Virus record (IMG/VR): IMGVR_UViG_3300027996_003878
Strand: one strand, 5' to 3'
DNA from: a virus
Lineage: Duplodnaviria; Caudoviricetes
DNA: 64,000 nt
Below the pieces are notes generated by a model. It was not told the DNA's origin. It did no database searches and saw nothing but the letters and a program-made list of their open reading frames with translations. Both the position numbers and the translations under genes were made by a program. Each line of letters begins with the position of its first letter. Position 1 is the first letter of the stretch. Below are positions 36,202 to 61,834 of the stretch, piece by piece.

Positions 36202-36597
36202 CTAAAGATAACCCTCGCAGCACTTAACTTTCGCTAATAGCAAATCTATATTAAGAATGTAAATCTGCTCATTCAATCTAGCCAGCTCCTTAAAATTACC
36301 TTCTCTTTTTTTTTCTAAAACATGTCGCTCTTTAAGAATATTTAAATTGTAATCAATTTTTTTACCTTGCGAAAAGTCGCAAAGCTCGCGAAGTGATTCA
36401 ATTGGAAGTTTATCTGCCCAATCGAAATCACACCCTACAAAAGCCTTGCTGTTAAAATCGTCAACAATGACTTTGTCATATTTTTTCGCCTGTCTTTGCT
36501 TTTTCTTTAAAGCCTTTAGCTGAGATTTAATTGAGCATATGTCTCTATTTCTAAAGAAATAGCTCCTTACTTTTGATTTTTTATTTAGATCATTCAT
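36202..36597 (-). CDS. Hypothetical basic protein
   Basis: 131-aa ORF. Confidence 0.6.
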   Translation of the reverse strand: MNDLNKKSKVRSYFFRNRDICSIKSQLKALKKKQRQAKKYDKVIVDDFNSKAFVGCDFDWADKLPIESLRELCDFSQGKKIDYNLNILKERHVLEKKREGNFKELARLNEQIYILNIDLLLAKVKCCEGYL

Positions 36598-36992
36598 TTA
36601 CTTACAACTTCAAAGCCTAATTTGACCATAAACTCGGCCAACTGCCCCCTGTAATGTGTGTTATAAGATCTTTCCCATGAAACTAACGTGTCTCCATCAT
36701 TAAAAGGCAAAAGATCTACTATATTATCATTAGAGCTTTTTGACAATGAAGCCAATTCACTGTAACATAAGTCCAACTGCTCTTGATATTTAGAAACAAA
36801 ATATGACCCTGCCTGTTCAGGATCCTTCTTTACCATCTCATAATAACTATCTAAAAGATCACAAGAAGGGGTAAATGGCTCAAATAAATAATCAATATTT
36901 AAATTTTTAGACTTATCTCCATAATATACACCAATAACTCTACCCGGTCCAAAGTTATCTGGCTCTAATATTGACGCTAAGAACACTTTCAT
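36594..36992 (-). CDS. DUF488-like protein (divergent)
   Basis: FTPSCDLL..Y..KYQEQL..TLVSWE..HYRGQLA resembles APS.ell..Y..ql..LlC.E..CHR. Confidence 0.5.
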   Translation of the reverse strand: MKVFLASILEPDNFGPGRVIGVYYGDKSKNLNIDYLFEPFTPSCDLLDSYYEMVKKDPEQAGSYFVSKYQEQLDLCYSELASLSKSSNDNIVDLLPFNDGDTLVSWERSYNTHYRGQLAEFMVKLGFEVVSK

Positions 36993-37531
36993 TTTACTAT
37001 AATTTGATCTAAAACAAGAGGATGAGCGTCGGAAGAAACGTTTATAAAAAACTCTTTACTGAGAGCGGGTCGTTTTGTCGATCCTGGTTTATTTAAAACA
37101 ACCTTATACTTACCCTCACCAAGACCAACACTCCATTTGCCAGAAGAACTTGTCCTCGTCTTTTGAATTAAATTATTATCAGAATCAAAGATATGAATAT
37201 TAACCAGTATTACATTCTTATCGTCGCTATAAGTTATTTTCTGTTGAACTAAATATTTTTGAGCGCTATTTTTTTGATCATTCTCTGAATCACTATTATC
37301 AGAGACTATACCCCCCACGGGAGAGACCGACGGCTGAACGCTTGGTGTCGAAGCAGTTCGCTTTTGCACTTTTGAGCCAACTTCGACCGGAACTTTGCCG
37401 CCCTCCAGCTTAGATATTCTTTGAATAATTAATTTATTATTAAAATCAATATTTCTTATATACCCCAATATATTATCTAACTTACTTTCAATTTCAATAA
37501 GCACATCTGAGGCCATTCTTTTTTTATTCAT
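36989..37531 (-). CDS. Hypothetical protein with C-terminal carboxypeptidase-regulatory-like beta-sandwich
   Basis: IHIFDSDNNLIQKTRTSSSGKW..GKYKV. Confidence 0.65.
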   Translation of the reverse strand: MNKKRMASDVLIEIESKLDNILGYIRNIDFNNKLIIQRISKLEGGKVPVEVGSKVQKRTASTPSVQPSVSPVGGIVSDNSDSENDQKNSAQKYLVQQKITYSDDKNVILVNIHIFDSDNNLIQKTRTSSSGKWSVGLGEGKYKVVLNKPGSTKRPALSKEFFINVSSDAHPLVLDQIIVK

Positions 37532-38226
37532 AATGAAACACAAACACCAACCTTTAGCGGTAACCTCTTCATAACGACAAAATCACCCTGCTTCAGGCCC
37601 CCTTGATCTTTGAAGATAATACTTTCAATATAATTCTCTATGTCATCTATATTGTCAGATCCAAAAACTATTTGACCACGAATGGCGACAAAAAAATTAA
37701 AAGCAAAATAATTATGAGAAGACTCTTTCTCCGAAGAGCTAACCCATTTTCTAGAACCTACCTGTTCATCTTCCTTTGACTGAACATGATCAGGCTGTGT
37801 GTCAAATGAAACGGTCTCCTTATCGCTTGGTAAAGAGACTTCATCATAAAATATTTGATCTTCATTTACATCTATCTCAGCCTGCTCTCTTTGAGGCACC
37901 CAGGCGTGCTCCATACTGTTTCCACTTGCAACAAAATTACTTTTAGGAATATTTTTTTCCTCAAATGGGACGCTTGGAGGAGTCTTGCTTATAACATTCG
38001 GAATATTTTGTTTTAACATTTCTTTTGAATTAACAGATCTGCCTTGGCGATTGTTATTTCTATTTCTATTCGAATAAAAATGATCTGCTTCAGAAACCTG
38101 ACGAGGTCTAAGCGGCTCTACACCCAGTCGAACATATTCTGGCTGATATGGCTCTTCTTTAAGACCCATGTCTCTATGCTCTTGTCGAAGCGACCGAGTT
38201 TTATTTTTTATATAGTTATTTCCCAT
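37528..38226 (-). CDS. Hypothetical protein
   Basis: 232 aa; disordered middle region. Confidence 0.65.
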   Translation of the reverse strand: MGNNYIKNKTRSLRQEHRDMGLKEEPYQPEYVRLGVEPLRPRQVSEADHFYSNRNRNNNRQGRSVNSKEMLKQNIPNVISKTPPSVPFEEKNIPKSNFVASGNSMEHAWVPQREQAEIDVNEDQIFYDEVSLPSDKETVSFDTQPDHVQSKEDEQVGSRKWVSSSEKESSHNYFAFNFFVAIRGQIVFGSDNIDDIENYIESIIFKDQGGLKQGDFVVMKRLPLKVGVCVSL

Positions 38227-38231
38227 TATGA

Positions 38232-38567
38232 TTACGAATTACTAAAATTCGCCTGCCTTTTAAGCCTATCTTCCATCTTTTTTCTCAGCTTTTCCTCTTT
38301 CTTACGCTGCTTTTTACCCCACTCACCCGATTTAACCTGAGCAGCTCGAAGATCCATAATTCTTTTACGCTCTTGCTGTTCTCTAAATTTTCTTCTCTTT
38401 TTAGCAGAAGGCTTTTCGTAACTCTGCCTGTCTCTAACTTGATTTATAATTTTTTCTTTTTGAACTATAGTTCTGAATTGCCTCATGGCATCCTCAGAAC
38501 GATCTTTATAAATCTTTACCTCAACACATTTGAACGTATCAAGATAGCTATCATCAAATTTATCCAT
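38232..38567 (-). CDS. rpsU: Ribosomal protein bS21 with terminal extensions
   Basis: VEVK..EDAMRQFR..VRDRQSYEKPSAKKRRK. Confidence 0.88.
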   Translation of the reverse strand: MDKFDDSYLDTFKCVEVKIYKDRSEDAMRQFRTIVQKEKIINQVRDRQSYEKPSAKKRRKFREQQERKRIMDLRAAQVKSGEWGKKQRKKEEKLRKKMEDRLKRQANFSNS

Positions 38568-42693: not shown

Positions 42694-43062
42694 ATGTATA
42701 TATTTAATTTTATAACTCTAACCGCCGCCAAGATAATAAGTGATTCTGACGTTTTTGCTATTGAAAGAATCTTTACTGACCTTATTGGCAAATATGGGTG
42801 GCTATTTATTGGGGCTTTCTTTACTTTGTTATTTAAAAACCTTGTATCTAATATTTTAGCTGGCATGATGTTCATGTTTGGAAGTGATTTTGATACAGAT
42901 GATGTTGTATTTATCGATGGTGAGAAAAAAGCAAGGATAGTAAGACAAACTCCCACAAAAACCGTATTTCATATTATCGAAAGCGACAGAAAGCTAATAG
43001 TTCCAAATATTGATCTATATAAACTAAAAATAGAAAAGATTCTTCCAGAAGCAAAAGATTAA
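42694..43062 (+). CDS. Minimal MscS-like protein (TM + Sm-like beta domain)
   Basis: LFKNLVSNILAGMMF..FDTDDVVFIDG..T.T.F...RKLIVPN. Confidence 0.65.
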   Translation: MYIFNFITLTAAKIISDSDVFAIERIFTDLIGKYGWLFIGAFFTLLFKNLVSNILAGMMFMFGSDFDTDDVVFIDGEKKARIVRQTPTKTVFHIIESDRKLIVPNIDLYKLKIEKILPEAKD

Positions 43063-43069
43063 TAAGGTG

Positions 43070-43968
43070 ATGAGTAAGTTTAATAAAGTTGTGGGGAACA
43101 CGCCGTTAATAATGATTAATGAACGTGTATACGGAAAGCTTGAAACATACAACCCAACAGGTTCCGTAAAAGATAGAGTGATAAGCTATATTGTTGATGA
43201 AGCAGTCTCTAATAATATAATAAATAATAAAACAATTCTCTGTGAGGCAACAAGCGGTAATCAGGAATTGCCCTTAGCGCTATAGCTGCATCATTAGGTT
43301 TAAAATGTAAAATATTTATGCCATCCAATATGTCAGATGAGCGTAAAAAAATGATGAAGGTCTTCGGATCAGAGATAATCGAATCACCTCCAAACGATTT
43401 TGAGCATGCAATTAATTCTCGCGACCAATTCATATCCAAGACAGAAAACGCCTGGTCTCCGATGCAATTTAGCAACCCTAAGAACATCGAGTGTCACCGA
43501 AAAACAACGGCACCAGAAATTTGCAAGAACGCTTGCGGAATTTCAAAAAATCTTAGCGCATTTATACACGGCTCAGGTACCGGCGGAACAATAGAGGGAG
43601 TAAGGCAATTTTTTCAAAACAAAGACCCAGTTAGATGTTGGGGTAAATGTCAGTATAAATCAAGCGAGCAAAGCCCTAAAATAATAATGGTAGTGCCAGA
43701 CGAAGAGATACATGGAATACAAGGTATCGCTGATGGGAAAGATTTTCTAGCCAAATCATCAGACATGGATGAGGTGATTAGAATTACAACACAAGATGCG
43801 ATTGACAGGGCAAAACTTTTTGCAAAAGAGACAGGTATACTCGTCGGGATAAGCTCAGGAGCAAACATTTTAGCATCCGAAAGATGGGTTAAAGAAAACG
43901 ACCCAGACGGAATAGTAATCACTATTCTATGTGATCGAGGCGAAAGGTATATGTCTATTTATAATTAA
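43070..43968 (+). pseudogene. cysK: Cysteine synthase (PLP), frameshifted by a 1-nt deletion near 43260
   Basis: GNTPL, NPTGSVKDR, EATSGN | SGIAL, GSGTGGT, GISSGAN; 899 nt in total. Confidence 0.9.
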
Positions 43969-43975
43969 TTTATAA

Positions 43976-44179
43976 TTATTTTTTTTTCAATTCATCATAA
44001 CCACCATACAATTGAGTTAATTCTTGCAACTCATCCAATTTAGATTTTTTTCTATACGGGCAATGCCGACAATCATTGTCACAACAATAACCTCTCTTCA
44101 GCAAGAACGATGCAGTCAGAACGACAAAGCCATCTTCAATATAAAAATCTTTGCCTTCAATTAATTTTTTATTACTCAT
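43976..44179 (-). CDS. DUF5522-like Cys-rich small protein
   Basis: DFYIEDG.VVLT..FLLKRGYCCDNDCRHCPY. Confidence 0.8.
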   Translation of the reverse strand: MSNKKLIEGKDFYIEDGFVVLTASFLLKRGYCCDNDCRHCPYRKKSKLDELQELTQLYGGYDELKKK

Positions 44180-44186
44180 AAATATT

Positions 44187-45044
44187 TTAATTTTTAAATT
44201 TAAAAGAAGACTCGTGTAATGTTTGGCGAATTAATCTCTTCTTTCTTTTTTTTGCTAAAAAGGCATCCATAGAGCGTAATTCAACAACTAATAGTCGGCT
44301 AGGCGAGCCACAATCTAGCATCATGAATTCTTCTCTTATTAAAGGCTTATAACTTGAACTGCCTAATTTTACCAACTCCTTATAATTGGCGCCGGCAACA
44401 ATTGTTTTACCACTTAATGCACTTACTTTCTCGCCCATACCAATGCTTCTAATTACACTAGTGCAAAGCTTCCTATCAAAAAACAAGCTCTGGAAAGAGC
44501 TGCCTTCCAGATCTTTATCTAAATCTAAGCCAGCATGTACAAAAATATAATCCTCTAAATGGTAGTAATTAATTGTATGATTTATTAAAAAATTAACATG
44601 AACTTCGGGTATTAAATTTAATATCCTGTCAGTCGTCAAACAATGAGGGTTTACATCTGATACGTTAAATCTTTTAAGATACCCAGAGATAGTCTCGTAG
44701 CCGCCACTACGAAGCCAAACGCTGATTGCATCCTCGCTGCACTCAAACGAAAATGGCTTGTCAATGACACCTAGCTTCCTTAAAATACACGCCTCTGTCG
44801 CGCCTCTTAAAAAGACAACCCTATCACCAAATTTCTCTTTTATGTCAATTAAATAATCAAAAACATAAGCAGATTGCTCTGTTTTGCCTGTATAATTGCC
44901 TAAAAATACTAAAGTATCATTGCCGCCATCGCTCTTACGTAGCGGTAAGATTCGAGCACAAATATTTTTTAATAAATCTAAAGAGCCGCGTATATCAGGA
45001 ATTACATATATGCAATTCAGAAAGGACGGACGCCACTTACTCAT
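44187..45044 (-). CDS. PPP-family (calcineurin-like) phosphatase homologue with degenerate active site
   Basis: DIRG/GNYTGK/RGATE in place of DIHG/GDYVDRG/GNHE; FVHAG retained. Confidence 0.85.
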   Translation of the reverse strand: MSKWRPSFLNCIYVIPDIRGSLDLLKNICARILPLRKSDGGNDTLVFLGNYTGKTEQSAYVFDYLIDIKEKFGDRVVFLRGATEACILRKLGVIDKPFSFECSEDAISVWLRSGGYETISGYLKRFNVSDVNPHCLTTDRILNLIPEVHVNFLINHTINYYHLEDYIFVHAGLDLDKDLEGSSFQSLFFDRKLCTSVIRSIGMGEKVSALSGKTIVAGANYKELVKLGSSSYKPLIREEFMMLDCGSPSRLLVVELRSMDAFLAKKRKKRLIRQTLHESSFKFKN

Positions 45045-45052
45045 TAAATTGC

Positions 45053-45517
45053 TTAAAATGAATCAAATGCTTTGACAACACCTTCAACGACAGAAGGATC
45101 TGACGAAACACAAGTATAATCAAGGGTATCACTTACAACATCACTTTTAGATCTCTTAACGTACAATGCCCCTGACTCAAAAACATAAAATGATTCACTG
45201 ACACTTCGTGAAGTTTCGCTCTTATAAATCAGCCTGCCGTCCATAGACCTCACAAGCTTAAGAACATCAGCATCTTTTGAAGAAGTTGAAATATACCGAC
45301 TAACATCATGCAAACACGAATTCGTAGATAACGATTGAAAAAATAAAGACAATCGAGTGAAATTTATCAGATTACTAGGACTGAATTCTTTAGTATCTGG
45401 ATAAGAGTAAAATTGCCACCACTTTGGCTTTGCCGGCTGTCCAGCGGCAGTGCCGCCTAAACCTTTTAGCATTTCCATTAACTCATTCATATCAGGCATT
45501 TTAGTTTGATTCATCAA
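45053..45517 (-). CDS. Hypothetical protein
   Basis: 154 aa; GGAGAGG SD. Confidence 0.65.
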   Translation of the reverse strand: MMNQTKMPDMNELMEMLKGLGGTAAGQPAKPKWWQFYSYPDTKEFSPSNLINFTRLSLFFQSLSTNSCLHDVSRYISTSSKDADVLKLVRSMDGRLIYKSETSRSVSESFYVFESGALYVKRSKSDVVSDTLDYTCVSSDPSVVEGVVKAFDSF

Positions 45518-45577
45518 TAATTCCTCTCCATATAAGTTCCACTAAAAAGCTTGTGTTATCGAAGAATAAAGTTAAAA

Positions 45578-47077
45578 TTAACATCTCTTTTTTCTAACTT
45601 CTCTTTTTTTATTGTTTAATCTAAAATAAACGCTATCAACTATTTGCCTCCTGATTCGTTGCAAGAATACAAGACTATCTATCTCATAATGTGATGGAAT
45701 TCTAAAATGAGTTACATGAACCGGAGTTCCCGGCAACACAGTGTCATTCATAGATATCTTAGAAAAACTATACTCTTTTACAGCGCCCATTAAAGATTCC
45801 TCAGCGTCTAGGCTCTTTACATCTATAAGCCTACCAATAAAACAAGGCCCATAATCCTTAAACTTTCTACCACCAATATATTTTTCTTCGGTTTTGTTTG
45901 GAATTGTTCTTTTTTCAGTGACATGAGCCTTAAACTCACTGATGCCTAAAAACAATGCTAAATTAGGATCTGTTAAAGAGACAATATCAATTGTTTCGCC
46001 ATTTTTTACAATAGAGAATGGCAAGTAATTTTCAACTAATTTTGAATATTCTTGAAAAATTCTTGCATGGATAGGAAAATCTGCCGTTTGATGTTTTAAA
46101 TGAACAAGATAAGAAATCATTTCTTCTGGAAAGTTTGCAAGCATTATCTTAAATGCTTCGTACATCAACTTCTTCTTCACAAAGGTAGACTTGTTCTGAT
46201 TTCTTGATATTAATCTAATTTGATTTTCGATGACATCTTTAAGGACATCATGCTCACGTATGAATCTTTGCTTATGCTCCAACTGATCGTCAGCAAAAAC
46301 GATTTTATAATCTGTTAAAGTATCCTCAAGCGTAAAATCGCCTCCGTCACCTTGGTTTAAACTGAAATTAAGGCTTAAAATATTTCTTGAAAATTGCTTA
46401 GTGGGGTGACTTTTTTTATCTAAATTATAACTTGCCCCGCAGTAAGAGCAATTAATGTAAGGGCAAGAGACACCAAACTCTGTCGCAGATGATTCAGGAA
46501 TAAACCGGACGCATTCTGGACAGCGATAGCCTTTCTTGGAATGCTTAACAAAGGCCCTATGAAGCATGAGTCTAGACTCCAGAGAGGCCTTTTCTTCAAC
46601 AGATGTAACTCTATCAATTTTATTCGAAATGATATTTATTTCTTTCGCACACTCCTTACACCGAAAATACTTTCCATCTTTATCAAGCCTCTCAATTTTT
46701 CCATAACACCTACAAGCGGGACATATAGGGGCAGTGACTTTTTCTTGCGTATTATTTTCTTTGTAAATTTTTATTGGAAGAATATTAATACATTTTAATA
46801 AGTATAAATTTAAATCTCTTCCGTCCCTCCAATGCTGTAATTTACAAAAGAAAACATAAAGAGCATTTCTAAGCTCTTGCTTTGCTCTTGCTCGAAACGA
46901 GCGTAACAAACTTTCCGGTACCTCGTCCGACAATTTTAAATTGTAAGCTTTGTATATCAAACGATCTATTTTCGACTTATACAATTCAAAAATATCATTT
47001 AATATCCAATTATCTATGTCGTTTTCAGTAATTTTATCGATAATTTGATTAAGCTTGAAAAAAATATTGTCAACCAT
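45578..47077 (-). CDS. Large Zn-ribbon protein, possibly sigma-factor-like
   Basis: CPAC/CKEC/CPEC/CPYINCSYC; SLN..GD.TLED linker; ATG at 47077 lies downstream of a terminator. Confidence 0.7.
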   Translation of the reverse strand: MVDNIFFKLNQIIDKITENDIDNWILNDIFELYKSKIDRLIYKAYNLKLSDEVPESLLRSFRARAKQELRNALYVFFCKLQHWRDGRDLNLYLLKCINILPIKIYKENNTQEKVTAPICPACRCYGKIERLDKDGKYFRCKECAKEINIISNKIDRVTSVEEKASLESRLMLHRAFVKHSKKGYRCPECVRFIPESSATEFGVSCPYINCSYCGASYNLDKKSHPTKQFSRNILSLNFSLNQGDGGDFTLEDTLTDYKIVFADDQLEHKQRFIREHDVLKDVIENQIRLISRNQNKSTFVKKKLMYEAFKIMLANFPEEMISYLVHLKHQTADFPIHARIFQEYSKLVENYLPFSIVKNGETIDIVSLTDPNLALFLGISEFKAHVTEKRTIPNKTEEKYIGGRKFKDYGPCFIGRLIDVKSLDAEESLMGAVKEYSFSKISMNDTVLPGTPVHVTHFRIPSHYEIDSLVFLQRIRRQIVDSVYFRLNNKKREVRKKRC

Positions 47078-51725: not shown

Positions 51726-51743
51726 TTTTCCTCCAAAAAAAAG

Positions 51744-52244: not shown

Positions 52245-52567
52245 AACTTGATTTTGAAATTAGCCAACAATGACTGGAGACTATCACTAACAATGCCAAA
52301 TGAGCCCTTAAAACCTGAAAGGTTTTGTATTTTCGGAAGCTTATCTAACTCCTCTGAAATAAAAGACTGATAGTCAAAATCATCCCCAGCCAGCTTCCGT
52401 CTTGCCAATTCCTGCATACATTCTAGAGCAAACTCTCGATTCATTCCTAATGATTTATATATTATCACTTGAGATGCTAAAAACTTAGAATCGCTCTCAC
52501 TGATTCTTTTTATTGCATCTTCAATAGATTTTTTTAAAAAAGTACCCTCGGAGCTATCTTCATTCAT
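52241..52567 (-). CDS. Hypothetical protein
   Basis: 108 aa; overlaps neighbours at both ends. Confidence 0.65.
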   Translation of the reverse strand: MNEDSSEGTFLKKSIEDAIKRISESDSKFLASQVIIYKSLGMNREFALECMQELARRKLAGDDFDYQSFISEELDKLPKIQNLSGFKGSFGIVSDSLQSLLANFKIKL

Positions 52568-52871
52568 TTAGTTTATCCATCAAACCTTTGTGCGGATCAA
52601 ATTTTGCAAAAACTTGAACTTTATTACCAGTAACAAGAGGGCTTGATACATAAAAAGAGCCAAACCCACGCAATGAAACAACGTCACCCTTTAACATAGA
52701 AGTCCGTATTTCTTGAAAAAATGACCTTATAATAACCTTGCATAAATCCATAGAAATATTAGAATTGGCATGTAACTTAAACACCAACTCATCAAGTCCG
52801 TCCAAAGTTACAGCTCTACCGTCATATATCGAGCCAATAAAATCATCAATATCTGGATAAAATTCATTCAT
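52560..52871 (-). CDS. HU/IHF-like DNA-binding protein 2
   Basis: LDELV..ISMDLCKVII..GDVVSLRGFGSF..AKFDP. Confidence 0.8.
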   Translation of the reverse strand: MNEFYPDIDDFIGSIYDGRAVTLDGLDELVFKLHANSNISMDLCKVIIRSFFQEIRTSMLKGDVVSLRGFGSFYVSSPLVTGNKVQVFAKFDPHKGLMDKLNE

Positions 52872-53002
52872 ATTAACGATATAATAAAACCTCGTAAATC
52901 ATATATAACGTAAAAATGCTGAAAGTAATCAAAAAAATAAAGTACCGATACTTACAGCAAGGTGATTAATTAAAAATTAATCTTTTAATAAAGAGCAGAA
53001 TT

Positions 53003-53929
53003 ATGGATATTGTTATTGAACGTGGCAAAGTTGTTGATATTGAAACTCTGCCAGAATTCTCTATTGCTCTTGACGGTTATGTTCAAGGCCCCAGAATCGA
53101 TTCAAAACACAAAAGATATAGTTTCGATCATCACGGAGACTGCATTCGCTTTTGCACCACTTCAGCCTGCATGCAAACTTGGACCGCAATACTCTTAGGT
53201 CTAAATCCCCAAGATTACACAGTATTTGCAAATGATATCGATGCTGATGTCTGCGTCAGCGTATGGTGCCTAAAAAACCCCGAAAGATGCACAGAGCCAC
53301 TAGTGAAGAAGCTCGTAGATGCCGTTGGCATAGGCGACATGCACGGAGGGGCGCTAACAAGTAATGGAATGACCAAAACGGTCGAATGGATTAGCGCTCC
53401 AGAAACTGATTCAAAAAGAAACAACGATTACCACAAGCTATCCAATGACGGCCTCGGTACTATTATGGAGTCGGTTCTCCATCGAATTGACATGTACGTC
53501 AACGGAGAGGCTTCGGCAGAAATAGCAAAGCAGGCAAAGCACGGAGAGTATAAAATTCTCAGAAATGAAAATAACTGGGTCTTAGCAGAGTCTCAGGACC
53601 CTCATGCGCTATCTTCTCTTTATCAAGGTGGTTTTGATCGTATTTTGCTAACAAGGCCTCAAGAAGACGGCTCTATCGCCGTAACAATCGCAAAGAGGAG
53701 CGACTTTATAAGCAGCTTCCCAATAACTAAAATGTATGATGAGCTTAACAAATTAGAAGATGGCTGGGGAGGAAGCTCAATTATTGGTGGTGCGCCAAGA
53801 AATGATGATGGCTCAAGAACTAGATTATCTTTAGATAAGATTTGTGAAATAATTGATAACTGCGTGCTCAATAAAAAAGTTCAAAGCGTAACAAAAAGAT
53901 CTAAAAAAACAAGATCAAAAAAAAGCTAA
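53003..53929 (+). CDS. DHH-like phosphoesterase
   Basis: ALDG, FDHH, NDIDAD, GWGG..IGG C-terminal motif. Confidence 0.65.
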   Translation: MDIVIERGKVVDIETLPEFSIALDGYVQGPRIDSKHKRYSFDHHGDCIRFCTTSACMQTWTAILLGLNPQDYTVFANDIDADVCVSVWCLKNPERCTEPLVKKLVDAVGIGDMHGGALTSNGMTKTVEWISAPETDSKRNNDYHKLSNDGLGTIMESVLHRIDMYVNGEASAEIAKQAKHGEYKILRNENNWVLAESQDPHALSSLYQGGFDRILLTRPQEDGSIAVTIAKRSDFISSFPITKMYDELNKLEDGWGGSSIIGGAPRNDDGSRTRLSLDKICEIIDNCVLNKKVQSVTKRSKKTRSKKS

Positions 53930-53933
53930 AGAA

Positions 53934-54593
53934 TTATATTAAAGTAGATTCTATACGATTCTGATTAAAGATTTGAACACACAAGCGCCCAGTTTTCTCA
54001 GGCCGAGTATTTATATTACAAGAATATGAGTAATACTTTGGAAGGCCGTCAGAGTCAGAGCTACCTCCACTTACCACATAACCAAACCTGCCATCATAAT
54101 AATGATGCCATGACTTAGAGCTTACCTCTGCCTCCTTGTCCGGCAAGATATCATTTACAAAGCAAGAATCTATATCATTTGAAATATTGTACCAAGAAGA
54201 ATTGGGCTTAATTCCCCCGTGAAGTACAGTCACGCTGTTAGTTGAATTAAATGAAAACCCCACAACTAAAGGCTGTTTCTCCATCCAAAGAACAAGATCA
54301 GTTATTTCTCTTCTCTCCCTCGCCTTTCTAATGTGAGCCAATTCATTCACACCGCGAACAAAAAATACTTTACCAGACTTTTGTAAATCAATTATTTTTT
54401 TATAAATAGAAATATCTTCAATAGTGTAATCTACACTGGAAGCATTTCCAACAAAGCATATATAATTATCCCTCAACAAAGAATCTAAAGAACCCAACAA
54501 GCCCAGCTTTTTAAAAAAAAGCTGGGCTTGTCCATTTATATTACCAAAAACAATTAACTTGCCATTATTTAAAATATCAACCTTACCAAGCAT
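53934..54593 (-). CDS. Second PPP-family phosphatase homologue with degenerate active site
   Basis: GNING/GNASSVD/RGVNE; VLHGG retained. Confidence 0.75.
   Translation of the reverse strand: MLGKVDILNNGKLIVFGNINGQAQLFFKKLGLLGSLDSLLRDNYICFVGNASSVDYTIEDISIYKKIIDLQKSGKVFFVRGVNELAHIRKARERREITDLVLWMEKQPLVVGFSFNSTNSVTVLHGGIKPNSSWYNISNDIDSCFVNDILPDKEAEVSSKSWHHYYDGRFGYVVSGGSSDSDGLPKYYSYSCNINTRPEKTGRLCVQIFNQNRIESTLI
54498..54530. repeat. Perfect 15-bp inverted repeat within coding sequence
   Basis: CAAGCCCAGCTTTTT-AAA-AAAAAGCTGGGCTTG. Confidence 0.9.
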
Positions 54594-54596
54594 ACA

Positions 54597-55328
54597 TCAA
54601 AATTTATAAGGAGTTAAAAATCCAATTTCTTCGGTAAATTGCCTCGCCATTTTCTCTTCAAGACTTTGCGCCTTGTACCCAAGCTTATGGTACAATCCGT
54701 ATTTATAACTAAGCGCATGATAAAGCTCATGAGCAAAAGCATGATGAAACTCATTCACTCTAATTTTCGCCTTCCCAAACCGAATTACGGTGCGATGTTT
54801 ATTCAACACGTCATTTCTTACATAAAGATGGCTTGATTGCCTAGAATAATAACCCCAAAGATTACCTTTACCCAACGATTTTGCCCTCTCACGAAAGCGA
54901 TACTTATAATCGTTCAAATTTCTGGCAGATCGACCTCCATCATAACTAGCAAAGGGAAGAAGAGAGACATCTATTCTTGAAGGGAGTTCATATTTATATT
55001 TATTAGACGAAACTCTTTTAATATTCAATCTAACTTTGTATTTTTTGATAAAGTGGGCAACCACATAGTTACAAGTCGCATTTAACTCTTTAACACTATG
55101 ATACGTTCTCTTTGAAATATTATACTCAATATTTGACGGACGCCACTCCACAATACGTACATTCTTACACAAATATTTAAGTTTAATTGTTTTTCGCAAA
55201 CGCTCCGATGGCATTGTCTCCTCCATACAGAAAGACTTTGACTTAAAAGTACAAGCATCCAATGCAAAAGAGTTATTTGAAAAAGAAATAACACTCAAAG
55301 CTACAAATAAAAAATAAAAAATTCTCAT
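54597..55328 (-). CDS. Secreted putative zinc metallopeptidase
   Basis: Signal peptide MRIFYFLFVALSVISFSNNSFA; HELYH (HExxH). Confidence 0.6.
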   Translation of the reverse strand: MRIFYFLFVALSVISFSNNSFALDACTFKSKSFCMEETMPSERLRKTIKLKYLCKNVRIVEWRPSNIEYNISKRTYHSVKELNATCNYVVAHFIKKYKVRLNIKRVSSNKYKYELPSRIDVSLLPFASYDGGRSARNLNDYKYRFRERAKSLGKGNLWGYYSRQSSHLYVRNDVLNKHRTVIRFGKAKIRVNEFHHAFAHELYHALSYKYGLYHKLGYKAQSLEEKMARQFTEEIGFLTPYKF

Positions 55329-55334
55329 GAATAT

Positions 55335-55362
55335 AATATAACTATTGTTATTTACATGTCAA
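55335..55362 (-). promoter_or_regulatory. Sigma70-type promoter TTGACA-N16-TATTAT, 6 nt upstream of ATG (leaderless candidate)
   Basis: Directly visible. Confidence 0.6.
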
Positions 55363-55375
55363 TATTAAATCGTTA

Positions 55376-55666
55376 CTAAATGGCTTTTTTTCTTTCTTTT
55401 TCAATCCGAGAGCTTTGCCAGTGCCAAATTGTTTTTTGTAGCTCCGAGTAAGAATTTATATTTAAATTTGAAGAAAGAAAGCAAATAATCATAACAATTT
55501 CGCCATAAACTACTCCGATAGCCTCCTCAGACAACTCACCGCTGATAAGCTCACTGATAAGATTGTTGAGCCTGGCCGCGCTATCCAGAAGTGATAGATT
55601 GTGCTTTTCAGCCTCACGCTCAGCTTCCTCCCACAAAACCTCAAAATGCTTCAAATTAGACCTCAC
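55376..55666 (-). CDS. MazG-like helical protein (divergent)
   Basis: LWEEAE..EEAIG..YGEIVMIICFLSSNLNINSYSEL. Confidence 0.4.
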   Translation of the reverse strand: MRSNLKHFEVLWEEAEREAEKHNLSLLDSAARLNNLISELISGELSEEAIGVVYGEIVMIICFLSSNLNINSYSELQKTIWHWQSSRIEKERKKAI

Positions 55667-55670
55667 AAAT

Positions 55671-55705
55671 AAAAAACCCTTGTTTTTTTATAACAAGGGT
55701 TTTAT
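55671..55705. terminator. Intrinsic terminator
   Basis: AAAACCCTTGTT-loop-AACAAGGGTTTT. Confidence 0.8.
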
Positions 55706-55730
55706 TTTTCTTTATTATTTATACGCCGCT

Positions 55731-56264
55731 TCACCTTGCAATGCTATAAACATAAGATCCTCGTGTTCCATCGACAACAATATCACCACGCTTTTTCAAT
55801 TGAAACAAATAACTATTAAGCATAGATCTTTTAATATCTACCTTTTGCTGTTTTAGGTAGGACTCAAGATCTCCAGCGGAGATGCCTTTATTATGACTGC
55901 CAATGGCGCTCAAAACAGCTGAAGTTTTTGTATTAGCACGTTTTTTAGACTTCGGCTTAGCCTTATTAACATGACTTTTTACCAACCCCTTAGTCTCTTG
56001 AGGGCGCTTATTTTCTTGAGGGCGCTTGCTAGCAGGAGCTGAATCAATATCAGATGACTTTGATCGATTTTTTGACTTACGATTCAAGGACTTATTATTG
56101 TCACTAAAATTAAATGCGTCTACAACATTACGCAATTCATAATAACTTTTTTCAGCTTGAATCATTTTTCGCTGAAGATGCCCTTCAATCAAATTTCTAA
56201 ACTTTTCATCATTCTGAATCATTTCATTCAAAAGAGCTACCTGGTTTTTGGTCAATTGCTTCAT
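55731..56264 (-). CDS. DNA-binding protein with C-terminal winged helix
   Basis: ATG at 56264 with AAGGA SD; GISAGDL..LNSYLFQLKKRGDI. Confidence 0.65.
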   Translation of the reverse strand: MKQLTKNQVALLNEMIQNDEKFRNLIEGHLQRKMIQAEKSYYELRNVVDAFNFSDNNKSLNRKSKNRSKSSDIDSAPASKRPQENKRPQETKGLVKSHVNKAKPKSKKRANTKTSAVLSAIGSHNKGISAGDLESYLKQQKVDIKRSMLNSYLFQLKKRGDIVVDGTRGSYVYSIAR

Positions 56265-56321
56265 AGTTTTCCTTATCATTAAAAAGATTTTGGCCTTATT
56301 TAAAGGCCGCTTACAGAGAGT

Positions 56322-56349
56322 ATAATAATAACAAAAATACACAAGTCAA
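56322..56349 (-). promoter_or_regulatory. Sigma70-type promoter TTGACT-N16-TATTAT
   Basis: Lies immediately downstream of the terminator at 56371-56397. Confidence 0.55.
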
Positions 56350-56370
56350 TAGCATTACTTGTAAAAAAAT

Positions 56371-56397
56371 AAAAAAGCCTCAATAAAACATTGAGGC
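56371..56397 (-). terminator. Intrinsic terminator
   Basis: GCCTCAAT-loop-ATTGAGGC plus T6 on the minus strand. Confidence 0.8.
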
Positions 56398-56430
56398 CTT
56401 TAAATTTATGATTTAAAATAAATAATACCT

Positions 56431-56973
56431 TTAGTAGTCCTTAGGGTAGTCTCTGAAATTATTGAAGCTATCATTAAAGTCACGACCCGATTGGTAATCA
56501 AAACCATCAGATCCGCGATTATAATCACCACCTCGAACTACAACATCATAATTACTACGATTATAATTTTGACGTGAACGATGAGGTCGGTTGTACTCCT
56601 TAATCGGACCTACAACCTGCAATTCCTCACAGCCATCCTTACTTGTGAAGATGATAAAGATCATTCCTTTGCTGCAATCAATTGCACCTCGAAACATCAA
56701 CTTTCCAACATAAAACTTTTTCCCATACTTATCTTTTCTGGAGTCAAGGCTAACTCTAACCCTATCATTTCTTTTCGAATATTTGGAGAATGTTGTATTA
56801 TCATTATTTATAGTTGCAACCTGCAACTCCTCCTCACCATCTTCAGAAAGAAAAATCAAAAACGTCACACCGTCAGAGCAATTAATCGATCCAGGAAACT
56901 GAAGCTTCCCTAAATGAAACATACTACCGTTTTTATCTTCTCTTGGATGTAATTCTACTTTCATATTAACCAT
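56431..56973 (-). CDS. Protein with a tandemly duplicated ~55-aa beta domain and an R/G/D/Y-rich tail
   Basis: EDKNG..HLGKLQFPGSINCSDG..FL..DGEEELQV repeated as KDKYG..YVGKLMFRGAIDCSKG..FI..DGCEELQV. Confidence 0.8.
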   Translation of the reverse strand: MVNMKVELHPREDKNGSMFHLGKLQFPGSINCSDGVTFLIFLSEDGEEELQVATINNDNTTFSKYSKRNDRVRVSLDSRKDKYGKKFYVGKLMFRGAIDCSKGMIFIIFTSKDGCEELQVVGPIKEYNRPHRSRQNYNRSNYDVVVRGGDYNRGSDGFDYQSGRDFNDSFNNFRDYPKDY

Positions 56974-57050
56974 AATACCTATCCTATTTTTTTTAATTTA
57001 ACTAATTGCCTAAATAATAATCCTTGCAACAAACAATCAAGGCTACGTAT

Positions 57051-57079
57051 ATAATAACCTTAAAGGCATTCCTAGTCAA
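57051..57079 (-). promoter_or_regulatory. Sigma70-type promoter TTGACT-N17-TATTAT
   Basis: Intergenic, upstream of 56973. Confidence 0.7.
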
Positions 57080-57206
57080 GTGCAGCGTAAACCCCTAGAA
57101 TCATTGAAAAAAAATAAAGGTGTAATAAAAACATTGTAAGTTGCAATAAATCTTTATTTATAATTAAAATTATAATTAACAAAAATATATGAAATTATTA
57201 ATATTT

Positions 57207-58010
57207 TTATTTTTCATTGAATAGATTTTTCGCTCTAAATACGTCATAACCATTAAGCAATATATTATATATAAAATCTTTGTCATCTAAAAAGACTGGT
57301 ATGTCGCTATCAAGCGTCCATTTATTTTTTTTTAATTCCTTATTATTGTTATTGATTAATGTTGGTACTTTATAAGCCGCTGTACCTCGAACAAAGCTAG
57401 TCGGGTATAAATTGTAAAAATTAATATCACAAATTTCAAACAACAAATCTATTTTTTCTTCAACTGTCTTTCCGCTAATTAATCTTTCAGCTTCATGTCT
57501 GCCATAAACATCTGATATGTAATAAAAGCAAGAGTCATAAATTATTGATCTAATAGACTTCTGTTGCCTGTACATTAGATAATTGTAAACCTCAGCCAAA
57601 GACGGTAATGCAAATGCCTTTGAATAGAAGGCCACATCACCAGAATTACTTAAATCTGCCCTACACTTATTGAGTGACTTAATAAACCCTAGCGTAACCA
57701 AGCTTGCTGATATTGAAGATATTTTTTGAACGTTATTTTGATACCAAGAGTCATTGTCATTTTTAATGATTAAATTAATCTCATCATAACATTGTAATAC
57801 AAAAACTGCGCTTTGAACGTTAGTAGCCAAAAAAAGAGAAGCATCACCCATGCATTCCATTAGAAATGCATCAAACGAGCCATATTCTAAATCAAATATC
57901 TTTTTTAAATTTCTTGCTTGTATTCTTATAGCTAAAGGTAGTCCGCTTGTAATTTTATAATCATAACAGTCCTCATAAATTAACTGTCTTTTAGCTAGTG
58001 ATAATGACAT
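57207..58010 (-). CDS. Thg1-like (tRNA-His guanylyltransferase-like) protein, first catalytic Asp replaced
   Basis: AIRIQARNL (normally RxDGxxF), QCYDEINL (SDE), YLMYRQ, RGT. Confidence 0.8.
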   Translation of the reverse strand: MSLSLAKRQLIYEDCYDYKITSGLPLAIRIQARNLKKIFDLEYGSFDAFLMECMGDASLFLATNVQSAVFVLQCYDEINLIIKNDNDSWYQNNVQKISSISASLVTLGFIKSLNKCRADLSNSGDVAFYSKAFALPSLAEVYNYLMYRQQKSIRSIIYDSCFYYISDVYGRHEAERLISGKTVEEKIDLLFEICDINFYNLYPTSFVRGTAAYKVPTLINNNNKELKKNKWTLDSDIPVFLDDKDFIYNILLNGYDVFRAKNLFNEK

Positions 58011-58012
58011 TT

Positions 58013-58591
58013 TTAAAATTTAGAATCTAGTAATTTTATAAAAGAATTTATACTACCCAGCTTATTGACTGGGATGCTTATACCAAGATGACCTCCTGTT
58101 CTAGGAATCTCGATAATTTTTTCACAATAATCATTCCAAATCTTGCTATTTCGAGCGCACCACCCTGCAATGTGAAAGTGGGGTTCAAAAAAACCATCAT
58201 TAAACTTTGGCTCTTTCAAATGAATAAAAACCTGAATGTAAGCATCAATTTCTTTTGTAATTTCTTCCTTTTTTATAAAAAGGTTCAAATTATCACGGTA
58301 AGGATAATAGCTACTAGTTTTTATATTAATAAGCTTTGTTGCATTATTAACCTTTACTACTAAATCTGATTCGTCGCCCGTCCCTACACAAAATTCAATG
58401 CTACACTTTTTATGCTGGCGACTTAAAATATCAAAGATTAGCAAGCTTCCAATCAAATCTAAAAGATCACCCTCACCGCGCTCTTGATCTTGAGTCTCAT
58501 TAAATCCAGAATACCTTTTATGCGGAGTATAATTTAAATAAGTATATTGAGCGTAGTCTAAAATTTGAGAAGGAATTATATTTTCATTCAT
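58013..58591 (-). CDS. Hypothetical protein, PD-(D/E)XK-like fold
   Basis: GDESDLVV..LINIKTS..FHIAGW. Confidence 0.5.
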   Translation of the reverse strand: MNENIIPSQILDYAQYTYLNYTPHKRYSGFNETQDQERGEGDLLDLIGSLLIFDILSRQHKKCSIEFCVGTGDESDLVVKVNNATKLINIKTSSYYPYRDNLNLFIKKEEITKEIDAYIQVFIHLKEPKFNDGFFEPHFHIAGWCARNSKIWNDYCEKIIEIPRTGGHLGISIPVNKLGSINSFIKLLDSKF

Positions 58592-58653
58592 GATAAATAA
58601 TTGTAAGTGAGAGCTTTAAACCCTCACTTATACAAAATAATTAAAATTAAAAT

Positions 58654-58899
58654 CTAAACTTCAAAGTTTAGATTTATATCTAAATCGTTATTATCAACAG
58701 TTAACTTATCATTCAGAACAAACCATTGATCAAGATTACACCGCATAGCCATTACTGCTCTATCTGAGCAACGATACAATGTGTTATTAACCTCTGGTTC
58801 TTCGCTATGCAGAGCCTCTAGCGCGGAAAGTATATCGTAATGATGACTCAAAACTTCACCAGAAAACGACTCAATCTCAAAATTAATCTTACTGCTCAT
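58654..58899 (-). CDS. Small hypothetical protein
   Basis: 81 aa; GGGGAG SD. Confidence 0.65.
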   Translation of the reverse strand: MSSKINFEIESFSGEVLSHHYDILSALEALHSEEPEVNNTLYRCSDRAVMAMRCNLDQWFVLNDKLTVDNNDLDINLNFEV

Positions 58900-59063
58900 T
58901 TAAACTCCCCGTTTATTCGCACACATCAGCGTTGATGAGACATCAACCCCTTTAAGGTTATACAAAGCAAGGAAAAAGTCAAACAAAAACGAACAAATCA
59001 CAGCACAATGAACAGGTTATCAACAGCTTAAATTATACATAAACAAGAGATATATAAAAATAC

Positions 59064-59321
59064 ATGAGACTTAATGCATTATTTATGCTAACTATCTTGC
59101 TAAGCGGTTGCAACTTTGGTAATTTTCATCTTGAGTATATAGCAAATAGAAAATTCGAATATTGTATACTGTTAGACATGGCGCAAAAAATAAATGATGG
59201 CGAAAAATTAGGTTGCTGGATAAAATGGCTATACTACAATTATGAGCATGCCAGCGAAGAAAGAAAAAAATATGGAGCAAAGAGGGTTAATGATATTTAC
59301 TCCATAATTAAATTCAAATAG
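59064..59321 (+). CDS. Putative lipoprotein
   Basis: MRLNALFMLTILLSGC lipobox. Confidence 0.55.
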   Translation: MRLNALFMLTILLSGCNFGNFHLEYIANRKFEYCILLDMAQKINDGEKLGCWIKWLYYNYEHASEERKKYGAKRVNDIYSIIKFK

Positions 59322-59505
59322 ATCTAATTCTACCTGTAGCTATACCTTCTCCATTCAAGGTGTCAATAATATTATTGATAATAGCGCCGACAAGCAATAA
59401 TTGCCCGGATAATTCATCACAATCAATTAAATTATCGTTCAAGTAGTCAATTTTAGATTTTAAATCACCAAGCTCTTTAGCAATATTTTTTTTAGAGCCA
59501 AGCAT
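59314..59505 (-). CDS. Small helical hypothetical protein
   Basis: 63 aa. Confidence 0.5.
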   Translation of the reverse strand: MLGSKKNIAKELGDLKSKIDYLNDNLIDCDELSGQLLLVGAIINNIIDTLNGEGIATGRIRSI

Positions 59506-59509
59506 ATAA

Positions 59510-59905
59510 TTAATTGGTAAGATAATTTACCACAAGACTATGAATCGAGCTATCTACATTTGACTTCCAGCTATCATCATTATTTTTTATTGACTCTCTA
59601 ATTGCCGTGGCGGAGATAAAACCAATATCCGCCGGAGGCTTATGCTCAATCGTGCCGTAGCCTACGCCTCTCCCCCAATTGACGCTTTCTATGTCGGGGA
59701 TGACCATTACCTCCACATCTTGATCTTTATAAACTTCTTTGATCATTTTCACAGTTTGATCTGTGGTGAATGGGTTTTTCTCATCAGGAGGAATGTCTCG
59801 AACACAGATCAAAACAGGGGTTCCCTCATCAAGCTTTTGACTAATAAGCCACTTGTGGCCGTTATGCATCGGCTGCCATCTACCTATAAACATAGCTCTT
59901 TTCAT
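59510..59905 (-). CDS. Cytidylyltransferase-like (HxGH) nucleotidyltransferase
   Basis: FIGRWQPMHNGH, ISATAIR. Confidence 0.85.
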   Translation of the reverse strand: MKRAMFIGRWQPMHNGHKWLISQKLDEGTPVLICVRDIPPDEKNPFTTDQTVKMIKEVYKDQDVEVMVIPDIESVNWGRGVGYGTIEHKPPADIGFISATAIRESIKNNDDSWKSNVDSSIHSLVVNYLTN

Positions 59906-59906
59906 A

Positions 59907-60266
59907 TTAACCCTCATCACCTAATAATTGACTTTCAACTTGAGACCAGCTTTCAAATCTCAAAGCATGATCATCAATATAATAACTAGCAGCTATCTTC
60001 GTATTTGTAACATCATCAAAATAAGAAGAAAGATTATATTTTTCCAACCAGGGAACAATATACTTAACTGGCCTGCTTGACATAACGACCAAGCGGTAAC
60101 CTTTACTCTTTAATTTTTTTAAAGAAGCCTCTACCCCCTCCATTGGAGGATCATAAGCATTATCTAAACCTTGAAAGCCCCTGGAATATCGATGAATTAC
60201 TCCATCAAAATCAATTGCAAGGGTTTTTCTTTTTTGCTCTAGTGGTATCTCTTTAATCTCAGACAT
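59907..60266 (-). CDS. HAD-superfamily phosphatase (small)
   Basis: LAIDFDGVIH, MSSR, YYIDD. Confidence 0.85.
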   Translation of the reverse strand: MSEIKEIPLEQKRKTLAIDFDGVIHRYSRGFQGLDNAYDPPMEGVEASLKKLKSKGYRLVVMSSRPVKYIVPWLEKYNLSSYFDDVTNTKIAASYYIDDHALRFESWSQVESQLLGDEG

Positions 60267-60317
60267 AACAAATAACCAATGTCTAAAAACACATAAGAAA
60301 ATTAATGTATCGACAAA

Positions 60318-60665
60318 TTAAAAATTTATAACCTCAATACCATCTTCGGTTGTATAATAAATTTTATTAACTTTTTTTGTTTTTATTGCACTCATGCAGC
60401 GCGCACAAGGCCTGGCAAGGCCGTAAGATCCATCCCTCTTAACCCTAGCGACGTAAAGAGTACATCCAAAACCACACTTTCTTAGCACCCTTGTCTCTGC
60501 ATGAATATACGGAGTAACGACTCGATTTGAAGTATTTCGTGATGTTACAATAACACCATCTGCCCGAACAGCAGCCGCCCCCAAATAAAAATGACGACGA
60601 CGATCATTATTAAATTTAGCAGCGCTCGCCGCCAAATCAATCATTCTTTTAATTTTCAAAGACAT
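60318..60665 (-). CDS. Cytidine/deoxycytidylate deaminase-family protein
   Basis: HAE, ARPCARC. Confidence 0.85.
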   Translation of the reverse strand: MSLKIKRMIDLAASAAKFNNDRRRHFYLGAAAVRADGVIVTSRNTSNRVVTPYIHAETRVLRKCGFGCTLYVARVKRDGSYGLARPCARCMSAIKTKKVNKIYYTTEDGIEVINF

Positions 60666-60952
60666 CAATTACGGCTAATCGAACTATCAATACTTCCGTC
60701 ATCCTGTGCAACTTTTAAGAGCACCAAATATCCTATTAAATCCATAACCGTATCTTCATCTAAGTCATTTCCATGACCGTTAGAAATTCTGGACAATTTA
60801 TCATCAATGCGGATTTTTATTTGCTCAACAGAATCCGCTCTTGAAAAAACTCTGATTGGAGAAATTGCCGAATCTCCATATTTACGATTTTTTGAAATTA
60901 ATAAATCTTTAACTTGATCTACTACAGATAATATTTTATCTTCTGTACTCAT
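60665..60952 (-). CDS. DUF1599 / nucleotide-modification-associated domain 1 protein
   Basis: KNRKYGDS..RIDDKLSRI..DTVMDLIGY. Confidence 0.8.
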   Translation of the reverse strand: MSTEDKILSVVDQVKDLLISKNRKYGDSAISPIRVFSRADSVEQIKIRIDDKLSRISNGHGNDLDEDTVMDLIGYLVLLKVAQDDGSIDSSISRN

Positions 60953-60958
60953 TAATAA

Positions 60959-61834
60959 CTAATCTTCAAACTTTGAAGCCTCTCGTTTTCTATCTAAATA
61001 TACAGAAGCTCCGTTGTACAAAAAATCTGAAATCTTACGAAGATCTAACTTAGATGTATAAACAATATGACCTAGTTCTTTATTGTTTTTCGATCTTTTT
61101 ACTTTAATATCTCTTTCCCCAACACCACAATGGTTTTTCAGGACCGCCATGAAAGATTGTAAAAACTCAACAGGGCCGCTTGTTTTAAAGTATACAACCC
61201 TACCGGTATCTTTATCTTTATAAAAGTTACCCTTGGCATCCACCCACCCTCTAAGAAAATGTCGAACCAAAGAATGATTCTTAACCCAATCAGGCATGTT
61301 ATAGTTATAAGTTTTAGAAGAGGTTACATTGAATTCTTCTTCTAAATCTGTAACCATCTCCTTTGAAGATACCAAAAACCTTACCGTCAAATAAGGGTTT
61401 GTATTTTTGTTAATGGTCAATTTTTTTACAGGGGCCTCGGATTTGATCGCATTCTTTAACTTATTTAAAAACGCCTCTTCTCTAAAAGACATATTAACAA
61501 AAATTCTATAGCTAGACTTTCCGCTTGTATTTCGAGAGATATTTCCATTTCCCGCTAAAAAGCCAGCCCAATAAAACTGCTCCTCCCCTTCTCTTGAAAA
61601 GAAGCGATGATCGCAATCATATTTTCTAAAAGAAAAACCATATTTAATATTATTTTTCTTAAATAGGCCAACCATTTTTGACCGACTCATATTATACTTT
61701 TTCGCTACTTTAGAAATATTCTTGTATTTTAAGTAATCATCCTGCAATGCTTTTCTAACATCACCGCTAAGGACCCCCTCAAAATCAACAAGACTATTTA
61801 AACTTAAATCATCAAATAAAATATTTTCACTCAT
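60959..61834 (-). CDS. Two-motif LAGLIDADG-fold protein with N-terminal HTH, predicted nuclease-dead
   Basis: YWAGFLAGNG and FLRGWVDAKG. Confidence 0.8.
   Translation of the reverse strand: MSENILFDDLSLNSLVDFEGVLSGDVRKALQDDYLKYKNISKVAKKYNMSRSKMVGLFKKNNIKYGFSFRKYDCDHRFFSREGEEQFYWAGFLAGNGNISRNTSGKSSYRIFVNMSFREEAFLNKLKNAIKSEAPVKKLTINKNTNPYLTVRFLVSSKEMVTDLEEEFNVTSSKTYNYNMPDWVKNHSLVRHFLRGWVDAKGNFYKDKDTGRVVYFKTSGPVEFLQSFMAVLKNHCGVGERDIKVKRSKNNKELGHIVYTSKLDLRKISDFLYNGASVYLDRKREASKFED

Follow-up and report, generated by a model that had tools for sequence, protein, structure and literature searches.

Phosphoesterases of the PPP/calcineurin-like family (PF00149) include NinI, PrpA/PrpB, ApaH/PrpE and the phosphatase domain of Pnkp, and their fold is also found where the active site is incomplete. 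The B-subunits of eukaryotic replicative polymerases are catalytically incomplete scaffolds with a metallophosphoesterase fold. Pseudoenzymes are well known in cells and, to our knowledge, rarely documented in phages with evolutionary evidence. VPS29, a component of the retromer, has a metallophosphoesterase fold with an incomplete catalytic site and is kept as a binding platform (PMC5748213). Thg1 has been noted in a few jumbo phages as an enzyme that repairs the 5' end of tRNA, and for both Thg1 and the calcineurin-like phosphoesterases of jumbo phages a role in RNA-end repair or against nucleotide signals has been proposed (PMC7824862). Here, we analysed a stretch of 64,000 nucleotides from the Caudoviricetes record IMGVR_UViG_3300027996_003878 (the window), for which an earlier note, made by reading the DNA, had listed four full-length open reading frames (ORFs) without catalytic residues: two PPP-type phosphoesterases (PPP1 and PPP2), a Thg1-like protein and a LAGLIDADG-type protein. 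Motif alignments confirmed that all four are real and lie where they had been placed (Table 1). The reading we prefer, with a probability of about 0.62, is that they are four separate pseudoenzymes, namely enzyme-derived backbone proteins kept for non-catalytic roles plus a cleavage-dead LAGLIDADG protein, and not one system. A pseudoenzyme is taken here as an enzyme homologue that has lost its catalytic residues and is maintained by selection; maintenance by selection was found for PPP1 only.

PPP1 and PPP2 have the fold of the PF00149 enzymes, and their active orthologues match this model at 1e-13 to 1e-14, with weak matches to the PrpA/B, ApaH/PrpE and Pnkp models. The window proteins differ in lacking the residues of motifs I-III and V, and are homologues but probably not functional members of the family. 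Their likeness to VPS29 extends to the metallophosphoesterase fold and the incomplete site, with no specific sequence relationship. Moreover, active orthologues of the phage proteins exist in sister lineages, which makes the loss recent and recurrent rather than ancient. The relatives used for these comparisons were recovered by protein searches (G001, of 301 kb, G002, G003 and G004, all from IMG/VR and all incomplete contigs), and further related contigs were obtained from assemblies (L011, L021, L022, L023 and L027). In the related contigs, the orthologues of PPP1, PPP2 and the Thg1-like protein are 28-45% identical to the window proteins and carry canonical motifs, whereas near-identical strains share the dead residues of the window.

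In PPP1, seven of the nine catalytic positions are replaced (D-R-N-G-K-A-T-H-A against the canonical D-H-D-D-R-N-H-H-H). Its motifs read PDIRG, GNYTGK, GATE and GAN, whereas four syntenic orthologues (35-42% identity) have PDIHG, GDYxDR, GNH[ED] and GHN. The canonical nine residues DHDDRNHHH were present in 105 of 120 PPP1 homologues from a large protein collection; the pattern DRNGKATHA was found in the window protein and in a 96%-identical relative (P0006). We then considered the 64 columns with at least 90% conservation among the homologues that are not dead, nine catalytic and 55 other. The window PPP1 retains two of the nine catalytic columns compared with 50 of the 55 others (Fisher p = 3.9e-5). 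Among the columns kept are those of the RILPLR block and of MSxWRP at the N-terminus, and the contrast was observed in the other six dead members of the family as well. The loss in PPP1 is specific to the active site. The protein scores 19.3 bits with PF00149, under the cut-off of 21.5, is 35-47% identical to PF00149-positive proteins, and matches phrog_246 ("NinI-like phosphatase") at 4.8e-10; among solved structures, RLPH2 (5VJV, 2.6e-5) is the closest by sequence.

To the dead PPP1 gene we applied a comparison with a 96.5%-identical strain that has the same dead residues (L018 and L019). There are 21 synonymous and 10 non-synonymous changes, corresponding to a synonymous rate (dS) of 0.127, a non-synonymous rate (dN) of 0.015 and a dN/dS of 0.12 (binomial p = 2.8e-8 against neutrality). 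In the same comparison, dN/dS was 0.09 for TopA and 0.11 for the neighbouring 532-residue protein. The dead PPP1 is under purifying selection. The terminal branch of the window PPP1, taken relative to that of G004, is no longer than for TopA (0.75 and 0.80). Active-site-specific loss, a low dN/dS and an ordinary branch together form the signature of a pseudoenzyme still in use. The earlier note had named active close relatives together with a dN/dS near 1 on this branch as an objection to its decoy proposal. Distant relatives of PPP1 are indeed active, but the dead lineage itself evolves under constraint like that on TopA, and on this point the objection fails.

Five further degenerate members of the PPP1 family were identified (P0037, P0055, P0075, P0088 and P0096; loci L021-L023). 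All seven dead forms have His19 replaced by Arg in motif I and Asp50 by Asn in motif II. Another five PPP1-family proteins form a group apart, with a His to Gln replacement only. Parsimony on the protein tree requires five changes for the dead state, and the approximately unbiased test does not reject a single dead clade (p = 0.31). The TopA tree requires two changes and places G004, which has an active PPP1, among the phages with a dead PPP1 (87/92 support). One origin and several origins of the Arg/Asn pattern are both compatible with these trees.

PPP2 has lost even more of its motif residues, with eight of nine positions replaced (N-N-N-S-V-V-N-H-G against D-H-D-D-K-N-H-H-H). It reads GNINGQ, GNASSV, GVNE, LHGG and SGG, compared with SDIHEH, GDxxDKG, GNHE, VHGG and SGH in its orthologues. 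The protein itself has no Pfam match, whereas its syntenic orthologues match PF00149 at about 1e-14; it shares 28-41% identity with PF00149-positive proteins and ranks first among the matches of the family profile. A family set was built by a profile search of 1.8 billion representative proteins, and the full-length matches were aligned with the window copy and the earlier homologues, giving 137 sequences. Among these, the canonical core pattern is present in 71, and 61 differ from it at three or more of the seven core sites. The family tree requires three to seven changes of state. The nearest relative of the window protein (P0152, 41% identity) is likewise dead, the motif-II Asp to Asn replacement is common to the window PPP2, P0152, P0157 and P0004, and dead forms persist across 28-41% identity. 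Of its conserved columns, PPP2 retains one of the seven that are catalytic and 14 of the 18 that are not (p = 0.007); the end branch leading to it has an ordinary length (0.54 compared with a median of 0.52). Dead forms thus recur and persist in both PPP families. With PPP2 as the query, no match was found in metagenome_contigs.

Two features adjoin or lie within the PPP2 gene. A 308-residue ORF on the opposite strand terminates 4 nt short of the PPP2 stop end; its FDHHGD and DIDAD strings recall DHH phosphoesterases, and it has no Pfam or PHROG match. Within the 5' part of PPP2 there is a perfect hairpin-forming palindrome that encodes QAQLFFKKLGL. Its loop is TTT in the window and AAA in L010 and L024, as if flipped, and is the source of an F27K difference. 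The palindrome is not a typical terminator, because it has no clear T-tract.

The Thg1-like protein scores 42.7 bits with PF04446 (cut-off 29.2) and 27.5 bits with PF14413 (cut-off 26.3), sharing both domains with the TLPs, and matches the TLP of Bacillus thuringiensis (BtTLP, 4KGK) over its full length at 1.5e-17. In BtTLP, D30 and D75 bind two Mg2+ ions and are described as strictly conserved in Thg1/TLP; the D75A variant loses activity (PMC3701042). The window protein keeps R29 and, with D76 and E77, the second and third carboxylates (D75 and E76 in BtTLP), and differs from the TLPs in three respects: Q31 aligns with the metal ligand D30, Gly-Ser replaces Lys-Pro, and the segment of residues 23-45 is remodelled. 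G44-S45 stands where all 12 clade relatives have [KR]-P, and the replaced pair is taken to include the activation lysine (ScThg1 K44) from our reading of the conserved KP motif. The protein retains 44 of 53 clade-conserved columns. Six of the nine changes fall in or near residues 23-45 (R23G, G32A, F35L, L42E and P45S, with G67S just outside), and Q31 and G44 add two within the segment; the changes cluster around the metal and nucleoside triphosphate site. At the first metal-site position, seven of the 12 relatives have Asp and five have Asn, and only the window protein also replaces [KR]-P. A Thg1-like query gave no match in viral_contigs. The Thg1-like proteins of L011 (4768-5553) and L027 (7803-8588) retain both aspartates and have the third carboxylate changed to Lys (SDK for SDE); directly upstream of each is a gene for an NAD-dependent DNA ligase.

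The LAGLIDADG-type protein has an N-terminal helix-turn-helix-like segment and scores 27.0 bits with PF14528 (cut-off 22.5) and 22.6 bits with PF00961, just under the cut-off of 23.1; it matches phrog_4645 at 2.6e-31. It resembles the phage "mobile intron" LAGLIDADG endonucleases, with 24-28% identity and the same two-domain architecture, and differs in that its gene is free-standing between unrelated genes and both catalytic Asp residues are replaced, by N and K. The sites read G-N-G and A-K-G in the window protein and A-D-G and G-D-G in five homologues from phages, one of them the intron-encoded ORF036 of Bacillus phage 0305phi8-36. Both positions are equivalent to D20 of I-CreI, of which the D20N variant is catalytically inactive (PMC2655683). 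A 98%-identical copy in L024 has the same residues. No syntenic copy was found in the incomplete contigs G001-G004, and the gene is a lineage-specific insert. It is probably a homing-endonuclease gene that has lost DNA cleavage and survives as a DNA-binding remnant or as a domesticated binder. Cleavage-dead genes of this type are an expected stage of the homing cycle.

All-against-all BLAST revealed a backbone gene order common to the window and the related jumbo-phage contigs: Thg1-like, PPP2, HU, ClpP, DUF192, FtsK-like, the 532-residue zinc-ribbon protein, PPP1, TopA, S21-like and the DUF488-fold gene. This shared order assigns PPP1, PPP2, the Thg1-like gene and the DUF488-fold gene to the backbone of a jumbo-phage clade; they are not accessory. 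The earlier note had placed the dead enzymes in an accessory region carrying sigma70-type promoters, and neither part of this survived. Only the block from position 58013 on, in which the PD-(D/E)XK-like, DUF1599-like and LAGLIDADG genes were searched, had no match or no syntenic match in the incomplete contigs G001-G004. Promoter-like sigma70 matches in the 44-64 kb region occur at the level of shuffled sequence (85 compared with 79.6 +/- 9.5). No near-identical record to the window was found in the phage collection searched, and for the gene upstream of PPP1 no homology was detectable between the window and L001.

Table 1. Features of the window discussed in the text (aa, amino acids; ORF, open reading frame)
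Feature	Position	Strand	Description
DUF488-fold protein	36594..36992	-	132 aa; backbone gene conserved in all relatives
S21-like protein	38232..38567	-	111-aa basic protein
CysK/PALP gene	43067..43968	+	host-like; frameshifted
PPP1	44187..45044	-	285-aa PPP-family (lambda-phosphatase/ApaH-like) pseudo-phosphoesterase
308-aa ORF	53003..53929	+	DHH-like strings
PPP2	53934..54593	-	219-aa member of second PPP-type phosphoesterase family
Perfect hairpin-forming palindrome	54496..54532	.	37 nt; 17-pair stem, 3-nt loop; within 5' part of PPP2 ORF
ORF called MazG-like in the earlier note	55376..55666	-	96 aa, helical
Two-module protein	56431..56973	-	180-aa backbone protein
Thg1-like protein	57207..58010	-	267 aa; PF04446, PF14413
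ORF called PD-(D/E)XK-like in the earlier note	58013..58591	-	192 aa, lineage-specific
LAGLIDADG-type protein	60959..61834	-	291 aa, N-terminal helix-turn-helix-like segment

The four genes had been proposed to form one repertoire, and this is contradicted by the uncoupling of dead and active states among related phages. L022 combines a dead PPP1 with a fully canonical PPP2, and L021 a dead PPP1 with a PF00149-positive PPP2. Conversely, in L011 it is PPP2 that is degenerate (P0004), PPP1 has canonical motifs II-V and the Thg1-like protein keeps D and K; L027 has a degenerate PPP2 and a Thg1-like protein of the same type as that of L011. The window is the single lineage seen here in which PPP1, PPP2 and the Thg1-like protein are all dead. 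Dead forms are common in each family, and for this reason we could not show that the co-occurrence in the window exceeds chance. Since related phages combine dead and active versions freely, there is no link that would make the four genes one system. A joint loss of the two PPPs and the Thg1-like protein as one RNA-repair pathway was also considered and was rejected, since the states are uncoupled in L011, L021, L022 and L027.

How the separate pseudoenzymes might work can be outlined as follows. In the window lineage of this marine jumbo-phage clade, PPP1, PPP2 and the Thg1-like protein have had metal-binding and catalytic residues replaced and keep their fold and the remaining family-conserved surfaces, and the three proteins would be retained for a non-catalytic role. 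In the most economical version, they would still recognise and occupy the ancestral ligand or partner but not turn it over, or would serve as a scaffold in the manner of VPS29. The candidate ligands would be a phosphorylated end or a nucleotide for the PPPs and tRNA or an RNA 5' end for the Thg1-like protein; the proposals made for jumbo phages (PMC7824862) make damaged RNA ends and nucleotides the first candidates. On this reading, the window genes look like further cases of a known phenomenon, pseudoenzymes, and not a new system. Two conserved jumbo-phage phosphoesterase families repeatedly lose catalysis and keep the remaining protein, which implies an undescribed second, non-catalytic job, and the pairs of active and dead orthologues are ready material for probing it. 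The transferred annotations "serine/threonine phosphatase", "tRNA-His guanylyltransferase" and "endonuclease" are probably wrong for this phage.

Several observations weigh against the reading as four separate pseudoenzymes. The inactivity of all four proteins is deduced from their residues. With Asn at the first carboxylate in five of 12 relatives, this position appears not to mark activity strictly among the Thg1-like proteins of this phage clade. Outside PPP1, the strain comparisons have little power: the Thg1-like gene differs from its L024 counterpart by four synonymous changes and one non-synonymous change (dN/dS 0.06, p = 0.0065), which is suggestive of purifying selection on only five changes; the LAGLIDADG gene has a dN/dS of 0.24 relative to L024 on five against five changes; and PPP2 has about one synonymous and four non-synonymous changes relative to two near-identical strains, a dN/dS of about 0.8-1 on four to five changes that carries little or no power, with too few PPP2 changes for dN/dS in the 99%-identical contig L010. 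In addition, the palindrome in the 5' part of PPP2 could interfere with its expression, and the frameshift in the host-like CysK/PALP gene may indicate some real decay in this genome.

The last of these observations, the PPP2 ratio and the death of all three backbone enzymes in one phage would all be expected if activities such as tRNA or RNA end repair were no longer needed and the genes were young pseudogenes not yet broken or deleted. CysK is frameshifted in the window and intact in the 96%-identical strain, and a degenerating homing endonuclease is to be expected in the course of the homing cycle. We nevertheless regard neutral decay as unlikely. Neutrality is rejected for PPP1, the non-catalytic conserved residues are kept in both PPPs (91% in PPP1 and 78% in PPP2), the window branches of neither are lengthened, dead PPP2 forms persist over deep divergence, and all the ORFs are intact in a genome of 35% GC, where stop codons arise easily. 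The earlier note had likewise excluded general decay. This is borne out by SbcD, ClpP and TopA, the motifs of which are intact, with CysK as the exception. SbcD, another calcineurin-like enzyme, retains DVH, GNHD and GHVH, and by reading, motifs are intact not only in ClpP and TopA but also in the FtsK-like and AAA ATPases, deaminase, HAD, NMNAT-like, cytidylyltransferase-like, HNH and trypsin-like protease proteins. It is very unlikely, in turn, that some of the proteins are still enzymes with non-canonical chemistry, for example through a Gln/Asn metal site in the Thg1-like protein or variant sites in the PD-(D/E)XK-like and DUF488-fold proteins. The Thg1-like relatives with Asn have kept everything else, and a clade-invariant SWER...YR block in the DUF488-fold protein looks like a conserved functional site. 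However, strict conservation is described for the two aspartates of Thg1/TLP and BtTLP D75A loses activity (PMC3701042), the window Thg1-like protein also lacks the presumed activation lysine, and with seven or eight of nine catalytic positions gone the PPPs have no plausible two-metal site left.

Purifying selection means that PPP1 still does something, and a coordinated anti-defence repertoire of decoys or sponges, sequestering immune signalling nucleotides, tRNA fragments or host phosphoproteins, would be one such use. The parent families have been proposed to serve RNA repair or to counter nucleotides in jumbo phages (PMC7824862), and the Arg and Asn that replace His and Asp in every one of the seven dead forms of PPP1 would suit a pocket that binds phosphate without metal. 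Set against this, each of the two replacements is a single transition, the recurrence of which mutational bias could explain, the losses are uncoupled among related phages, and three of the four genes belong to the backbone and not to an accessory region. No window protein resembles any defence-related model, PADLOC giving no match for any of them. Tad1, Tad2 and Acb2, with which the earlier note had compared these proteins, are likened to them only in the idea of a non-catalytic small-molecule binder: scans with Pfam, PHROGs and PADLOC recovered no homology to these three, only the parent enzyme families or no match at all, and the window proteins are derived from enzymes, whereas Tad1, Tad2 and Acb2 are small dedicated binders and are not known to be former enzymes. 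We therefore consider a coordinated repertoire improbable. A bolder form, to which we give equally little credence, would have the dead PPPs, and possibly the Thg1-like protein, act as metal-free traps in which Arg and Asn bind a phosphorylated ligand, which could be an immune second messenger, Ap4A or the end of a damaged RNA, converted several times independently by marine jumbo phages for counter-defence.

Three weaker cases had been listed beside these four, and none of the three can count as an established dead enzyme. The DUF488-fold protein has no Pfam match, and Foldseek of its predicted model (predicted local distance difference test, pLDDT, 89) against the PDB gave nothing; in AFDB the matches are mostly to DUF488 (E 6e-5, template modelling score, TM, 0.66). 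The fold agrees with models of DUF488 (PF04343), and no loss specific to the window was seen: the block LPFxDGDTLxSWER...YR is identical across six phage lineages, so nothing has been lost in the window copy. A literature search found no paper defining catalytic residues for DUF488. The MazG-like assignment of the helical ORF is a lead only. This ORF has no family match in the Pfam and PHROGs scans, its Atlas feature scores of 0.85-0.89 are sub-threshold, and a 77-residue orthologue in L001 shares 32% identity. Likewise, the PD-(D/E)XK-like fold is a possible lead only: an Atlas model matches the PDDEXK_5, PDDEXK_14 and Hjc clusters with TM 0.46-0.57, a single-sequence AF2 model has a pLDDT of 32, and no homologue was found in the phage collection by tblastn or in G001-G004.

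The CysK gene is split by a one-base deletion near position 43262 (GGTAAT-CAGG compared with GGTAATACAGG). It is intact (299 residues) in L018, and its C-terminal part shows 14 synonymous changes and one non-synonymous change. Either the gene decayed very recently or the assembly is in error here. In the syntenic loci L001-L004, nothing matches CysK or the plus-strand genes beside it (42694-43968 in all). Terminator-like hairpins are about threefold enriched in positions 44000-63999 (34 compared with 11.5 +/- 3.4 in shuffles), and several of them are classic bidirectional sites with an A-tract, a stem and a T-tract. Among the other backbone genes, the S21-like gene lies just after TopA or one gene further in the relatives examined, and its orthologues there carry a ribosomal protein S21 domain (PF01165). 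The 180-residue backbone protein contains two copies of a module of about 50 residues, one of which is YVGKLMFRGAIDCSKGMIFIIFTSKDGCEELQV, and is 42-48% identical to its counterparts in G001-G003.

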